A stretch of DNA of 43,888 nt from a phage: NCBI GenBank assembly GCA_031856995.1, contig GCA_031856995.1_4356.1; one strand, 5' to 3'. The notes under the pieces were generated by a model that saw only the letters and a program-made list of their open reading frames with translations, had not been told where the DNA came from and did not search any database. This document shows positions 14,408-41,628 of this stretch, in pieces. Position numbers and translations under genes: made by a program. The stretch's first letter is position 1. Each line of letters begins with the position of its first letter.

Positions 14408-14436
14408 TTGCGTACCCCAATATAATAGGGTACTAT
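14408..14436 (+). promoter_or_regulatory. sigma70-like promoter with palindromic core, driving the + strand island
   Basis: TTGCGT-17 nt-TACTAT with ATAATAGGGTACTATTC core; same element as at 32985-33013 and 34873-34901. Confidence 0.6.
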
Positions 14437-14451
14437 TCACTTACACCAACA

Positions 14452-23299: not shown

Positions 23300-23550
23300 G
23301 TTTCTCCTTTCTCGATAAGTAAAGCCCCGCTTTAAGGCGGGGCGCTAGTCCTTATCATTTAAACATAGAAACGGCGTAATCTCAGTAAACCCGTTACTTT
23401 TTACACGAGCAATAGAGTATGGCCCTTCCGAACGCGTCAGCGTAACTACACTCATGACTTACGTCCCGCTCCGTTACCTGCCCGCGCCGCGGTCGCTTGT
23501 TCATACTTCACAAGCTCAGGTGGAGCTTAGCACATTTTTAGTGAAAAGTC

Positions 23551-23566
23551 AACTATTCGAATAGTT
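23551..23566. promoter_or_regulatory. Perfect 16-bp palindrome AACTATTCGAATAGTT
   Basis: Direct reading; half-sites are those of the recurring promoter palindrome but in inverted arrangement. Confidence 0.5.
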
Positions 23567-24103: not shown

Positions 24104-25179
24104 TATTCCCCTTTCAGATAATCAGCAACACGTTTATCGAGTTCCGCCATCTGCTTAAGCGTGAGCGGATTCCCGAAACCATCTACAGATATTACGCGAA
24201 ACTCTTCCGGCGATATACCGCTGTTACGGAAAATCTTACCCCGCACCGGGCCTAGAGCCTGGTCCTGAAACCATGCCGGTTGTTGTTTCAGGAACTCGTA
24301 GTAAGTGGTGTCTGCGCTTACCTGAGTACCTCCGTCCGCACCCTTAGCCGCGCGTTTTGCGCCTTTATCCAGGAAGTCGAACTCCGAACTGATTACCGGA
24401 GCCGTGCACGACCGGCAGTTCGGATGGGCGGGGGGCATCGGCCCTTTACCGATTTCCCACGTCATCCCATCTCTGGCCTTGCAAACGGCTGAGGTCCTAG
24501 AATCAAGAGTAGACACCCACTCATATTTCTCGATAATGTCGTCGTTCTGGCGGTACGTCTCATTACGGGCTTCGTTGGACACGTGGGACAGCGCGGTGCG
24601 GATTACTGTAGCAGCGTGTTTCTCTGATACGTCAGCCAGGCCGCCTTTACCAACTACTTCTTTAACAATCTGCCGTGTGGTTTGGCCTTGCACAAAGCCC
24701 ATCTTAACGCCAGTTACAAGGCGCGCGACCTCCGCTTCACCCCAGCCTGACATCAGCTTGGTGAAGTCAACAGGCTTGTCGCTCAACGATAAGGGTTGAA
24801 ACTCGGCGGCGGCCCACACCTGTTCAGCGGTAGGCGTAACAAATTCCGCGTTTACGTTGGCGGTCAGTGTCTTTACGTTCCACTCCGCCTCATACGCCGC
24901 CAGTTCCTTAAGGTCTTCTGTCAGCTTTGTTTGCCAGTCAACTGTAAGTCCAGCCAGTGCTTCTTCAAGGTCGCGTAACAGTTTATTCAGCCGGGCGGTG
25001 CTGCGGCCATCATCGCCGAATAACAGCACCTGCCGTTTGATTTCGTCCCGCATCTCCTGAATGAACGGTGCTAGGTCTTTCACCTCACCGGATGCAGTAC
25101 GTTGCAGCCATATCTGGTGGCTAATTAGAGATGTAAGTAAGCTCATAGATAAACCCTGCGGTGCTAAAGTTAATAGCAT
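24103..25179 (-). CDS. head morphogenesis protein (Mu F / SPP1 gp7-like)
   Basis: 358 aa directly after portal gene; C-terminal AHPNCRSC motif. Confidence 0.65.
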   Translation of the reverse strand: MLLTLAPQGLSMSLLTSLISHQIWLQRTASGEVKDLAPFIQEMRDEIKRQVLLFGDDGRSTARLNKLLRDLEEALAGLTVDWQTKLTEDLKELAAYEAEWNVKTLTANVNAEFVTPTAEQVWAAAEFQPLSLSDKPVDFTKLMSGWGEAEVARLVTGVKMGFVQGQTTRQIVKEVVGKGGLADVSEKHAATVIRTALSHVSNEARNETYRQNDDIIEKYEWVSTLDSRTSAVCKARDGMTWEIGKGPMPPAHPNCRSCTAPVISSEFDFLDKGAKRAAKGADGGTQVSADTTYYEFLKQQPAWFQDQALGPVRGKIFRNSGISPEEFRVISVDGFGNPLTLKQMAELDKRVADYLKGE

Positions 25180-25215
25180 ACTATAGGAAAGCCCCTTTCG
25201 GGGCTATAGATGAAC

Positions 25216-26709: not shown

Positions 26710-27981
26710 TTAAAGTGCGAAAGTCACCGGGACGTTAATAACTGGTTTGCGAATCGGCATTTCATACGCGATAGGGTATGTGGTTCCATCATTCTGGTGG
26801 TCCACACCACCTGATTTATCCGGTTCGCCGTTCTTGTCGTAGGCTTGCTGCTCCAGGCATCGAGCAGTAACCGGGCAAGCCTGTTCGTTAATCATGACCA
26901 TACCAGATTCAAGCGCCTTATTCATCGCAGATACGCGGTCTTTAACCGGTGGGTTTGTCGATTTAGCGCGTACTTCGAAACCGGCCTGCTGTAGCTGGAC
27001 GATGTCGGAGGTGCTGGCGTTGTTGCTTTTACGGTTCTTGCCGCTGGCGTCCGGGTACATAACGATATAATGGCCCTTACTTTTCCAGCGCTCCGTTATG
27101 GCTCGCACTACATCCGGCGTATCGAACATATCAACCAACTCGGCGACAGCGTGCCACACCTTTCCGCGTTGCACGTAGACTGTGCTCGCCATATGGCCTA
27201 CGTTAAAATCCTGCCCAATATACAGAGTCTCACCAGGCTTGATTGTTTCGCGACTGCTGTTTTTCCTGCGGTCGTAAGCGTAGTAGACCGTCCCAGCCGT
27301 GAGGTTTACGAACTCGCCGTTGATGTAGGCATCAATCAACTGCCCGGGGTAGGTATCTCGTAAGGACTGCACATAATCTTCTGGCAGGAACGGGTTAGAC
27401 AGGGTGGACGCCTGAATCATCTCGTAACCAGGATTCTTTTTAACAACCCAGCGGTCATGCACGAAACGGAATCCTTCCGGCGTAGTGAACACGGAAACGG
27501 TATTAGCAGGTTTTGGCGTAATAGGTTTATACGTCCTCGGCAACTGACGGTTACGGGCGATGACTTTGTTCCATGCGTGCTCCGCGTGTTCCATGTTCAG
27601 GGTATCCAACTCGTCGATTTTTGCACGAAATGACTCGTAACCAACGATTCGTGCTGGATTATCTAATGTACGCAGGACAAAATCCCCAAATTGACCGGAT
27701 GACGTATAGATTATGTTGTCGGACTTATTGTATTTGTACCGGATACCCCAGTCCGTCAGCTTCTCTTCCATACGGGGCGCAAGGATAAGGCGTACCAGGT
27801 CATAAGTAGGCTCATACATGGCGATGATAGAATCGCTGCCACCCTCCATGCTGTCCAGTAGCGCGGAGTTACACATAACCTCTGATTTCCCGGTGCCGAA
27901 GCCAGCCACGAACGCAGGGAACTTGCAATGCATCCCAAGAAATGCGCCTTGAGGTTCCGTTGCCGTGATATTAACGTTCAC
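26710..27981 (-). CDS. terminase large subunit
   Basis: Walker A-like AGFGTGKS near N-terminus; 423 aa; upstream of portal. Confidence 0.8.
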   Translation of the reverse strand: MNVNITATEPQGAFLGMHCKFPAFVAGFGTGKSEVMCNSALLDSMEGGSDSIIAMYEPTYDLVRLILAPRMEEKLTDWGIRYKYNKSDNIIYTSSGQFGDFVLRTLDNPARIVGYESFRAKIDELDTLNMEHAEHAWNKVIARNRQLPRTYKPITPKPANTVSVFTTPEGFRFVHDRWVVKKNPGYEMIQASTLSNPFLPEDYVQSLRDTYPGQLIDAYINGEFVNLTAGTVYYAYDRRKNSSRETIKPGETLYIGQDFNVGHMASTVYVQRGKVWHAVAELVDMFDTPDVVRAITERWKSKGHYIVMYPDASGKNRKSNNASTSDIVQLQQAGFEVRAKSTNPPVKDRVSAMNKALESGMVMINEQACPVTARCLEQQAYDKNGEPDKSGGVDHQNDGTTYPIAYEMPIRKPVINVPVTFAL

Positions 27982-28483
27982 CGGACACCACCTTAATTGT
28001 TACTTCACTGATTGGCTCGTCGCGTACTTCTTCGGCGACAACTGTTTTATTCAGCCCCAGCTTAGCGGCGGCGAACGTAGCAGAGATACCGGCGGCCCCA
28101 TTCTCAGTGAAATACGCCTCTTCCAGCGCCTGTGCCGTTTCATAGGCTTCTGCAAATGAGGGAATCTCGCGCAGCCACAGCTTAATAATCGGGATAGTGA
28201 CACCGATGTGTAAGGCGAAGCGAGCCAGTGATGGCGGTTTATCCGCAATGACTGCTTTGTAGTCTCCGTGCGCACCGGTCGGCATAGCCTCCCACGACGT
28301 GCGGTCGAAGAAACGAATCAATTCGTCACAATAGTCCGGGTCCCACAACGCGGCGGAATTACGGGATGATTGATAAAGGCTCTGTTTACCGCGCGGTCGT
28401 TTACGGCGACGGTTTGCGCTAACAGCTTCTTCATGTGCAGCTTGCACCACCTCTGGTGATGGCTGCTTGAGTTTCAGCTTCAT
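27971..28483 (-). CDS. terminase small subunit (putative)
   Basis: Overlaps start of large subunit; likely ATG at 28483 after AAGGGGA (track ORF starts 28522); basic stretch RRRKRPRGK. Confidence 0.55.
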   Translation of the reverse strand: MKLKLKQPSPEVVQAAHEEAVSANRRRKRPRGKQSLYQSSRNSAALWDPDYCDELIRFFDRTSWEAMPTGAHGDYKAVIADKPPSLARFALHIGVTIPIIKLWLREIPSFAEAYETAQALEEAYFTENGAAGISATFAAAKLGLNKTVVAEEVRDEPISEVTIKVVSGER

Positions 28484-28548
28484 AGAATCCCCTTGCATAT
28501 GCGTCTGACCATCAGAGCGCACCAGACGCGCCCTACGCGTCTAAATGG

Positions 28549-28578
28549 ATTATATAAGGGGATTGGGCGGGATGTACA
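28549..28578 (-). promoter_or_regulatory. sigma70-like late promoter upstream of terminase genes
   Basis: On - strand TGTACA-18 nt-TATAAT, directly downstream of a terminator hairpin. Confidence 0.5.
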
Positions 28579-28599
28579 GAAAAGCCCTCGGTAGAGGGC
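28579..28599 (-). terminator. Rho-independent terminator
   Basis: GCCCTCggtaGAGGGC hairpin plus T-run on - strand. Confidence 0.6.
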
Positions 28600-28702
28600 T
28601 TGTATCAGTTGTATAGGCCGTGGCGTGGTGCTCTTTTACCGTCGCCGCCGTAATGGTCGTTAGCTACGGGAATGGCCCGGGCGTTAGGGATGATTAGTAG
28701 TC

Positions 28703-28939
28703 TCATTCCCCGCTCTCCTCTCGTGCGATACGTTGCTCAGTTTTAGTGATACCCCGGCGCGTGAATAACACCGGGCTTGTTTTAACGTGCGTCATCAGAC
28801 GGTTGTTATAAATTACGTGGCGCTCGCAGTCCACGTCTTTGCTGTACTTCGCAATCGTCATTTCGTTGATGCCGGTTTGTCGGCACGTCTCGGCCATCGT
28901 GCCAAATTCTTTAATCAGGTTAGGAATGCTGGTAATCAT
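28703..28939 (-). CDS. small HTH DNA-binding protein
   Basis: TMAETCRQTGINEMTIAKYSK helix-turn-helix-like; ATG 28939 coupled to upstream small ORF (track ORF starts with GTG at 28963). Confidence 0.5.
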   Translation of the reverse strand: MITSIPNLIKEFGTMAETCRQTGINEMTIAKYSKDVDCERHVIYNNRLMTHVKTSPVLFTRRGITKTEQRIAREESGE

Positions 28940-30407: not shown

Positions 30408-30436
30408 AATATAATAGGGTCGAGGATAATAGTCAA
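30408..30436 (-). promoter_or_regulatory. sigma70-like promoter (TTGACT-17 nt-TATATT on - strand)
   Basis: Hexamers with 17-nt spacer about 35 nt upstream of ATG 30373; leader contains AACGAGA shared with other phage promoters. Confidence 0.55.
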
Positions 30437-30454
30437 CTAGTCATTACAGAAAAC

Positions 30455-32952: not shown

Positions 32953-32984
32953 TTCGTTTTCCTCTGTCTCGTCTGTGTAAATGA

Positions 32985-33013
32985 ATAGTAGCCTATTCTA
33001 TCTTAGTGTGCAA
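32985..33013 (-). promoter_or_regulatory. sigma70-like promoter with palindromic core
   Basis: On - strand TTGCAC-17 nt-TACTAT; core GAATAGTAGCCTATTC is a perfect 6+4+6 palindrome. Confidence 0.6.
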
Positions 33014-34838: not shown

Positions 34839-34872
34839 TTCTAAATTCCTTATGTCTCGTTTCGATAAGTGA

Positions 34873-34901
34873 ATAGTAACCTATTATGTTGGGGTGTGCA
34901 A
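34873..34901 (-). promoter_or_regulatory. sigma70-like promoter with palindromic core (leftward early promoter)
   Basis: On - strand TTGCAC-17 nt-TACTAT; core GAATAGTAACCTATT. Confidence 0.6.
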
Positions 34902-38454: not shown

Positions 38455-38490
38455 GTCAGTTGATATGTGAATAGTACCATATTAATTATT
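38455..38490 (-). promoter_or_regulatory. Promoter/operator element for the leftward HTH gene
   Basis: Palindromic core GAATAGTACCATATT; on - strand TACTATTCAC box matching -10 regions of the TTGCAC promoters. Confidence 0.45.
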
Positions 38491-38503: not shown

Positions 38504-38532
38504 TTGACATGTGAATAGTTCGCTATTATAGT
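38504..38532 (+). promoter_or_regulatory. sigma70-like rightward promoter with palindromic core
   Basis: TTGACA-17 nt-TATAGT; core GAATAGTTCGCTATT. Confidence 0.6.
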
Positions 38533-41599: not shown

Positions 41600-41628
41600 T
41601 TGACATCTGAATAGTTAGCTATTATAGT
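41600..41628 (+). promoter_or_regulatory. sigma70-like promoter with palindromic core
   Basis: TTGACA-17 nt-TATAGT; core GAATAGTTAGCTATT. Confidence 0.6.

Follow-up and report, generated by a model that had tools for sequence, protein, structure and literature searches.

Two stem-loops in nascent RNA, the put RNAs of phage HK022, render RNA polymerase resistant to termination, and 5'-terminal stem-loops such as that of the ompA 5' untranslated region stabilise mRNA, the rule of few unpaired 5' nucleotides reportedly being that of Emory, Bouvet and Belasco from 1992. Within the pac region of phage SPP1, the binding sites of the small terminase (TerS) overlap the promoter of gene 1. The ribosome sites of the T4 genes e, soc, 49 and I-TevI are masked in long early transcripts by a helix whose 5' arm contains their late promoters (McPheeters et al. 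1986; review PMC3014915). The present analysis concerns the interval 28484–28601, immediately upstream of the small terminase gene terS on the − strand of a 43,888-nucleotide (nt) phage DNA (GenBank assembly GCA_031856995.1, contig GCA_031856995.1_4356.1), here called the window, which shows 100% identity to Escherichia phage vB_EcoS_XY1 (MN927225; Kagunavirus, Guernseyvirinae). With confidence a little better than even, the interval is interpreted as the control region heading the packaging and structural gene block, in which a predicted terminator and promoter precede a leader of two hairpins (HP1 and HP2) and a long-range helix, P0, would mask the terS ribosome site.

In the proposed arrangement, the intrinsic terminator would end the variable unit of small genes upstream and stop most of the transcription arriving from it, and the host sigma-70 promoter TGTACA-18-TATAAT would fire directly after, from about position 28542. 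The 59-nt leader of a promoter-started RNA would begin with HP1 and HP2, an open Shine-Dalgarno sequence coming next and then the AUG of terS. An RNA reading through the terminator would keep the −10 and the C-rich bases that follow it, and pairing of these with the terS Shine-Dalgarno sequence and spacer would form P0, closing a three-way junction with HP1 and HP2 and hiding the ribosome site, such that terS would go untranslated from leaked RNA. Promoter-started RNA lacks the 5' strand of P0 and so should be translatable. Terminator and P0 would jointly insulate terminase expression from upstream transcription, and HP1, placed at the 5' end with at most two unpaired bases, probably guards the mRNA against 5'-end-dependent decay. 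The elements involved are the following:

28576–28601, − strand: predicted Rho-independent terminator, with stem AAGCCCTC/GAGGGCTT, loop TACC and then U-rich UUCUGU
28573–28578, − strand: −35-like hexamer TGTACA (block TTTTCTGTACA invariant in Kagunavirus and Jerseyvirus)
28545–28564, − strand: predicted 5' strand or strands of P0, anti-Shine-Dalgarno; RNAalifold register AAUCCAU at 28551–28545, and in XY1 a minimum free energy (MFE) register of AAUCCCCUU at 28564–28556 plus UAU
28549–28554, − strand: −10 hexamer TATAAT, 18 nt from the −35, doubling as part of the predicted P0 5' strand
28542, − strand: predicted transcription start, an A 7 nt past the −10 and the first base of HP1, placed by sigma-70 spacing
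28524–28542, − strand: HP1, AGACGCG-UAGGG-CGCGUCU, the predicted 5' end of promoter-started RNA, with a conserved YAGGG loop
28499–28522, − strand: HP2, GUGCG-C-UCUGA-UGG-UCAGA-CGCAU, with a bulged base and three inner pairs changed on both sides
28483–28494, − strand: terS ribosome site and predicted P0 3' strand, comprising the Shine-Dalgarno GGGG (28492–28489), spacer AUUCU and the A of AUG

Terminator and promoter ahead of terS

About 80 distinct versions of the control region, gathered through the TerS protein, DNA patterns and BLAST, were compared across five lineages, namely Kagunavirus, Jerseyvirus, two lineages around Salmonella phage vB_STM-ZS (Z1 and Z2, or ZS type) and Dhillonvirus. 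The TerS proteins of the Z and Dhillonvirus lineages are 27–30% identical to that of XY1, and the control element is present in 417 phage records. A single order of elements is common to the five lineages, running from a terminator hairpin with a T-run to TATAAT (TACAAT in Jerseyvirus), then 6–7 nt, HP1, 1–3 nt, HP2, the Shine-Dalgarno sequence and ATG. All the sequence features that an initial annotation of this DNA had listed were found in place on the − strand, and its proposal of a terminator followed directly by a promoter, together heading a separate unit that starts at terS, is borne out by the retention of both elements in all five lineages. A scan of viral contigs using GGGCTTTTCTGTACA added mainly duplicates and chance matches. 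Across 185,579 species genomes, the motif gave one chance match and a single real match, in a Jerseyvirus contig within a Taishania assembly. This 18,987-nt scaffold (NZ_JACVEL010000022.1), deposited under Taishania pollutisoli (Bacteroidota), bears a typical Jerseyvirus terS control region and most likely reflects contamination of the assembly by phage sequence.

The terminator hairpin AAGCCCTC-TACC-GAGGGCTT (28601–28582), as returned by an inverted-repeat search, has a stem of 8 base pairs (bp), five of them G-C, and a 4-nt loop. Its fold was calculated at −14.3 kcal/mol (z −4.35), and 0 of 200 shuffles were equally stable. Compensatory changes were found in the stem, where CCCTC/GAGGG of Kagunavirus becomes CCCGC/GCGGG in Jerseyvirus and the Z lineages and CACTC/GAGTG in one variant (L232); another variant (L050) carries a G.U pair on the sense strand, and the loop is free to vary. 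The hairpin starts 3 nt past a TGA stop codon and is preceded by different genes in different relatives, with at least six unrelated kinds of sequence upstream. Homology begins exactly at the hairpin, which therefore marks a mosaic boundary. A simple terminator scan of the window did not call the hairpin at 28601–28582, apparently because two A-U pairs extend the stem and leave T at four of the next eight bases. The homologous hairpin in the relative fBC-Eco01 was called by ARNold (T23, score −12.7; PMC9825357 supplementary table S2). The compensatory stem changes, together with mosaic upstream genes and homology from the hairpin onward, make a Rho-independent terminator at 28601–28576 well supported, in agreement with the initial annotation.

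The putative promoter TGTACA-18-TATAAT (28578–28549) matches the consensus at 10 of 12 positions. Nucleotide diversity (pi) of the −10 hexamer is 0 among 56 variants of the Kagunavirus lineage, and Jerseyvirus has TACAAT. Between these two lineages the hexamers are kept and the 18-nt spacer is wholly different in sequence and constant in length. Kagunavirus, Jerseyvirus and the Z type have a −35-like hexamer at 17–18 nt without TGn (TTGCCT-17-TATAAT in the Z type), whereas Dhillonvirus, a sixth lineage described below and the outgroup Vibrio phage NF are without a usable −35 and have a perfect extended −10, TGnTATAAT, in the forms TGTTATAAT, TGCTATAAT or TGGTATAAT. This complementary usage of −35 and extended −10 is the pattern of functional sigma-70 promoters, and a sigma-70 promoter ahead of terS is well supported by the comparison of lineages. 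The distance from the −10 to HP1 is 6–7 nt in all five lineages, which places the predicted +1 (28542) at the start of HP1. Literature searches on these genera turned up nothing specific on the promoter, the transcriptome or pac mapping.

Several database records touch this promoter. Four Dhillonvirus records, deposited independently, begin exactly at its TATAAT, probably by a copied convention, and those of vB_SenS-Ent3 and fBC-Eco01 are cut near it. Record start points were considered as physical ends and left unused, since records begin at the ATG of a long open reading frame (ORF), at a ribosome-binding site or at TATAAT and look like annotation conventions. Salmonella phage SETP3 (IMGVR_UViG_641201315) is a recombinant within the element, combining a terminator stem and HP1 of Jerseyvirus type with a promoter spacer and −10 of Kagunavirus type (ATCCCGCCCAATCCCCTTATATAATCCCTTT). 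The sixth lineage consists of four IMG/VR contigs of 27–39 kb whose TerS is 35–38% identical over 90 amino acids. Its layout is alike and its leader different: a terminator is followed by the extended −10 TGTTATAAT, a single hairpin GCGGAUCGAAAGAGCCGC with U6, then GGAG and ATG. This hairpin with its U-run looks like a leader terminator, and the −10 region is likewise complementary to the Shine-Dalgarno sequence and spacer.

Two conserved hairpins in the leader

The repeats of the leader, all exact by inverted-repeat search, are GCGTCTG (28501–28507) with CAGACGC (28523–28529, extended to 28530 as CAGACGCG) and AGACGCG (28524–28530) with CGCGTCT (28536–28542), each written as on the + strand. 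The initial annotation had seen them as interlocking and able to form alternative structures; instead, they fold as two adjacent and independent hairpins, HP1 and HP2, separated by 1 nt in XY1 and together forming the MFE structure (−24.4 kcal/mol). Structure prediction upheld a structured leader and spoke against mutually exclusive structures. Both palindromes are single-copy within the 43.9-kb window.

A covariance model built from Kagunavirus and Jerseyvirus finds one copy per genome in Kagunavirus, Jerseyvirus and the Z lineages (50–76 bits) and weaker copies in Dhillonvirus. Alignment to this model was used because an all-lineage MAFFT alignment mis-registers the Dhillonvirus and ZS-type hairpins. 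Of the model-aligned cells, 98.3% are paired, a value that shuffles (91.2%) reach in 0 of 500 cases. Pairing counts from an alignment fitted to the model are biased toward structure; the same two helices were predicted by RNAalifold from a plain MAFFT alignment of Kagunavirus and Jerseyvirus. Four pairs are changed on both sides, in HP2 from U-A to G-C, C-G to A-U and U-A to C-G. One-sided stem changes that give G.U pairs on the sense strand are of at least six kinds and make up 21 cells, against two A.C cells. The bulges of HP2 are asymmetric, with 1/0 nt in Kagunavirus and Jerseyvirus and 1/2 nt in the ZS type, and the outer stem is kept. The G.U asymmetry and the unequal bulges argue for an RNA of the sense strand, which they would fit, and not for a DNA dyad.

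The hairpins vary far less than their surroundings. Within Kagunavirus, pi is 0.004 in HP1 and 0.023 in HP2, compared with 0.207 at third and 0.05 at first and second codon positions of terS, which puts variation in the hairpins 10–50 times below that of synonymous sites. The YAGGG loop of HP1 and the apical GAUGGUC of HP2 are kept in all five lineages, the latter being identical in the consensus of every lineage with GAUGAUC in one Kagunavirus variant (L027) as the sole noted deviation. Conservation therefore goes beyond the needs of pairing, and a specific partner, whether protein, RNA polymerase or ribosome, may tentatively be considered, doubtful as it is. A search of Rfam 15 gave no match overlapping 28484–28601, even at E up to 10, and the HP1–HP2 motif was found neither in the outgroup phage NF nor in the sixth lineage with its related TerS. 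The bases after HP1 are GGUGCG and those after HP2 are AUAUGCAA, with a U-run at neither. Two further candidate motifs were rejected. A boxA-like CGCUCUGA in the 5' arm of HP2 occurs in Kagunavirus only, is replaced by CGCUAUGA, CGUUAUGA or UUGCCGA elsewhere, and is paired; boxA of lambda is CGCUCUUA. A boxB-like pentaloop was dismissed by inspection, YAGGG not being GNRA-like.

Helix P0 and the terS ribosome site

An inverted-repeat search returned a 14-nt, 86% complementary pair between 28564–28551 and 28499–28486. The 5' strand of the conserved P0 register consists of the last 3 nt of the −10 and the next 4 nt, and a second register lies at 28564–28552. In Kagunavirus, Jerseyvirus, Z1, Z2, Dhillonvirus and the sixth lineage, the MFE structure of read-through RNA is a P0-HP1-HP2 three-way junction in which the ribosome site is paired, whereas the site is open in the predicted folds of RNAs begun at +1 in the same six lineages. 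The mean unpaired probability of the site, computed for five lineages, falls from 0.65–0.72 in promoter-started RNA to 0.19–0.43 in read-through RNA. A 160-nt sense RNA of XY1 was calculated to fold at −53.7 kcal/mol (z −3.75), with the terminator and the junction present in both the MFE and the centroid structure.

Comparison of relatives is consistent with this helix to a varying degree. From 22 Kagunavirus and Jerseyvirus variants, RNAalifold predicted a P0 in which AAUCC(C/U)U pairs with G(G/A)GGAUU; one C-G pair is exchanged for U-A, and U.G variants occur. In the outer part of P0, the TATAAT/AUUAUA of Kagunavirus corresponds to TACAAT/AUUGUA in Jerseyvirus. Pairing specific to a lineage was found as CUCC/GGAG in Z1, CACCUG/CAGGAG in Z2 and CCC/GGG with UAUAA/UUAUA in Dhillonvirus. 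The rank of the native duplex among all genomic 24-mers varies between lineages from the top 0.05% to the top 20%, and the duplex is more stable than 5'-segment shuffles in seven of seven cases (p 0.005 to 0.24). Vibrio phage NF has a terminator and promoter without P0 (duplex just −3.9 kcal/mol), and P0 is thus not an automatic product of this arrangement. In a chimera test combining 5' segments and leaders across lineages, Kagunavirus and Jerseyvirus showed no clean diagonal, and the ZS type and Dhillonvirus gave only partial support.

A number of observations weigh against the proposed control region, and most of these concern P0. The helix is short and imperfect in XY1, where A28546 stands opposite G28491, and this pair is broken in 5 of the 22 variants. 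Kagunavirus variants with AAUCACC or AAUCCAC have a weaker second register, with no compensating change seen. Taken lineage by lineage, the second ZS-type lineage (p ~0.2) and one Jerseyvirus representative give weak support, and the C/U-rich upstream segment pairs partly with the purine-rich Shine-Dalgarno sequence even in shuffles. Were the promoter constitutive, the gain from masking read-through RNA would be unclear. For the promoter itself, an 18-nt spacer is suboptimal for sigma-70, and consensus-type matches number 17 in 20 kb against 20.2 expected from shuffles, which is not above chance, so that the case for a promoter rests on its conservation in relatives. Neither masking nor 5' protection explains the strict retention of the loops (YAGGG and UGG) and of nearly all stem bases. 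On the folding and comparative evidence together, the chances that P0 is functional appear evenly balanced.

On the − strand, the gene order upstream runs through small ORFs, a NinH-like protein (28939–28703) and a 33-codon ORF (28706–28605); a 121-nt gap holding the control region follows, and then terS (ATG 28483), terL, portal and the head and tail genes. The 33-codon ORF closes the upstream unit in XY1, and other genes take its place in relatives. The two genes flanking the gap are:

28605–28706, − strand: 33-codon upstream ORF (phrog_32259), with a TGA stop at 28607–28605, 3 nt ahead of the terminator hairpin
27971–28483, − strand: terS, 170 amino acids (phrog_3064), starting at ATG 28483 and not at the in-frame GTG 28522

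Alternative explanations and comparison with described systems

Compatible with the control region proposed here, though itself doubtful, is a role of HP1 and HP2 as a sequence-specific cis-acting RNA signal, serving as a translational operator or acting on RNA polymerase in the manner of HK022 put. Such a signal would account for conservation in excess of pairing needs (pi 0.004–0.023 against 0.207 at synonymous sites), for the retention of YAGGG and GAUGGUC across lineages whose TerS proteins are ~30% identical and for two hairpins 1–3 nt apart directly past a promoter, and strong same-strand hairpin terminators do lie within the downstream operon (23343–23324, 20951–20932 and 16631–16612). 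However, the element matches no Rfam family, phage NF and the sixth lineage lack the motif, and terminators after capsid and tail-tube genes are common without antitermination being needed. The initial annotation had also raised packaging recognition, and a pac site, with the palindromes as DNA bound by the small terminase just upstream of terS as in SPP1, is unlikely: the excess of G.U over A.C among one-sided changes (21 cells against 2) is sensible just for a sense-strand RNA, the asymmetric bulges of HP2 would shift the register of DNA half-sites, and phased direct repeats are absent from the element. The proposal draws on the occurrence of each palindrome once per genome, on the position of the element next to terS, on its strong conservation together with TerS, whose helix-turn-helix-like core (IGV..W.R..FAEA) is invariant, and on the headful packaging of Jerseyviruses, presumably from a pac that was never mapped. 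PhageTerm on relatives gave no preferred end, however. Published runs on a kagunavirus and a jerseyvirus returned no defined ends (random, permuted), and a Kenyan jerseyvirus study predicted a pac-initiated headful mechanism yet saw no pac fragment on restriction digests; nothing in this work therefore places pac here. A P1-type pac with TGATCA/GATC clusters was also rejected, the window having seven GATC sites, none of them near terS. The asymmetric G.U-type changes and bulges also tell against HP1 and HP2 as DNA operators (+1 to +44) for one or two dimeric repressors that hold the packaging promoter off until late. Both are perfect dyads, 7 bp-N5-7 bp from +1 to +19 and 10 bp-N3-10 bp from +21 to +44, and the changes on both sides would also match co-evolving half-sites; but the sites are unique in the genome, the evident operator palindrome of this phage is a different one (AATAGT-N3-CTATT, ~10 copies), and two unrelated dyads imply two regulators, all of which leaves operators decidedly unlikely.

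An attenuator or switch, the further role suggested in the initial annotation, would have the three leader repeats form mutually exclusive structures. On paper CGCGUCUG pairs with AGACGCG or with CAGACGC, but the competing helix 28529–28523/28507–28501 (GCGUCUG/CAGACGC) has an ensemble probability of ~1e-5, and forcing it yields −16.2 against −24.5 kcal/mol, a cost of 8.3 kcal/mol. This helix is broken in Jerseyvirus (CAUACGC), the ZS type and Dhillonvirus, in contrast to the covarying HP1 and HP2; HP1 is transcribed earlier and would fold earlier, and a U-run follows neither leader hairpin. An attenuator is on these grounds extremely improbable. Very unlikely, too, is that GTG 28522 (ATG in relatives) is the true start, used through the Shine-Dalgarno-like AGGG of the HP1 loop to make either an extended TerS or a leader peptide that opens the structure as it is translated. 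AGGG does stand 8–9 nt ahead of AUG or GUG in all five lineages, the G/A polymorphism preserves a start codon, Kagunavirus and Jerseyvirus have the ORF in frame, and several database records annotate terS, or begin the genome, at that codon. The frame and length are nevertheless not conserved: the ORF extends terS in frame in Kagunavirus, Jerseyvirus and one further relative (L184), spans 9 codons in one ZS-type lineage and, out of frame, 20 codons in the other and in Dhillonvirus. Between Kagunavirus and Jerseyvirus, six of six codon changes in the 13-codon stretch are non-synonymous, compared with mostly synonymous ones past ATG 28483, and the AUG is paired within the HP2 stem and the AGGG confined to a loop of 3–5 nt. 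The unconserved frame and length and the non-synonymous changes therefore place the terS start at 28483, as annotated in XY1, and by the same comparison 28522–28483 is read as untranslated leader. Many records of relatives start terS at the upstream in-frame ATG or GTG (183-amino-acid product) or begin the genome there, and the start codon of many database entries is thereby corrected.

Some further features were observed in the window. The AATAGT-N3-CTATT palindrome occurs ~10 times against 0.57 expected, at 2118–2131, 14424–14437, 23544–23557, 25172–25185, 30428–30441, 32984–32997, 34872–34885, 38470–38483, 38514–38527 and 41610–41623. At 2108–2136, 38504–38532 and around 41600 it lies between a perfect TTGACA and TATAGT (TTGACAtgTGAATAGTnnnCTATTATAGT), a placement that suggests an operator within strong sigma-70 promoters of one class. 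The same motif is listed in the fBC-Eco01 paper under 'phage RNA polymerase promoters' (PMC9825357). The XY1 annotation holds no RNA polymerase gene, and the terS promoter is without the palindrome. GATC is ~25-fold under-represented (7 sites against ~171 expected), which suggests strong avoidance of GATC-specific restriction or of Dam/MutH-related activity. Past the major capsid gene stands a strong terminator, AGAGGGAC-UUCG-GUCCCUCU-UUUC (20951–20932, − strand), one of several internal ones, with a TATAAT two bases upstream of it (region 20970–20905, − strand). Just past the endolysin gene (30558–30459, − strand), a near-consensus promoter TTGACA-17-GATACT (30558–30530) is followed after ~40 nt by a strong terminator, CCCGGC-CCTGACCCA-GCCGGG-U8 (30488–30459), and a second promoter lies at 30436–30408. 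The first promoter and the terminator would yield an RNA of ~65 nt, reminiscent of lambda PR'-tR'.

Kagunaviruses, Jerseyviruses and Dhillonviruses rank with the coliphages and salmonella phages isolated most frequently and are used in therapy and as synthetic-biology chassis, and the timing of their late genes is essentially unstudied. The region offers a concrete and testable control point for the terminase and structural operon, made up of one promoter, one terminator and one RNA junction, and the T4-style device of a promoter inside a masking helix may extend to ordinary sigma-70 promoters. A bolder and rather doubtful proposal is that HP1–HP2 is an undescribed cis-acting phage RNA motif of Guernseyvirinae and Dhillonvirus, whose loops would be read by a protein or RNA polymerase to control the packaging and structural operon, for example through processive antitermination or terminase autoregulation, in addition to a promoter whose −10 would serve at the same time as the anti-Shine-Dalgarno strand.

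The closest parallel to the control region is T4 gene e. As there, the −10 region would encode the 5' strand of a predicted helix that sequesters the Shine-Dalgarno sequence or start codon, promoter-started transcripts would be without the masking strand and should be translatable, and the apparent purpose is insulation of a late gene from upstream read-through. The promoter here differs in being of host sigma-70 type (TATAAT with a −35 or TGn), where T4 has the gp55 late type (TATAAATA). In place of the simple stem-loop of T4, P0 is a long-range helix, predicted to span a 59-nt leader that carries two conserved hairpins and to close it into a three-way junction; an additional predicted intrinsic terminator lies upstream, and the target is a siphovirus small terminase. 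As in module-boundary arrangements of other phages that pair a terminator with a sigma-70 promoter, a GC-rich 8-bp stem with a 4-nt loop and a U-rich tail lies past a stop codon, a −35/−10 pair follows immediately downstream and a recombination (mosaic) boundary coincides with them. In contrast to a typical terminator at such a boundary, the tail here is a short, interrupted U-tract (UUUUCUGU) overlapping the −35. HP1 resembles the ompA-type stabilisers in lying 0–2 nt from the predicted 5' end in all five lineages, but those need no particular sequence, and HP1 and HP2 are nearly invariant. With HK022 put, the element shares two adjacent hairpins (~1 nt apart) near a promoter, at the head of a long operon containing terminators; its hairpins are far smaller (19 and 24 nt), and the likeness is one of layout. 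With SPP1 pac it shares a conserved, genome-unique position immediately upstream of terS in a siphovirus that packages by the headful mechanism, but the covariation seen here (G.U pairs and bulges) indicates RNA, and phased repeats are lacking. Taken as a whole, the module is a variation on known mechanisms to which one unexplained and very conserved RNA motif is added.

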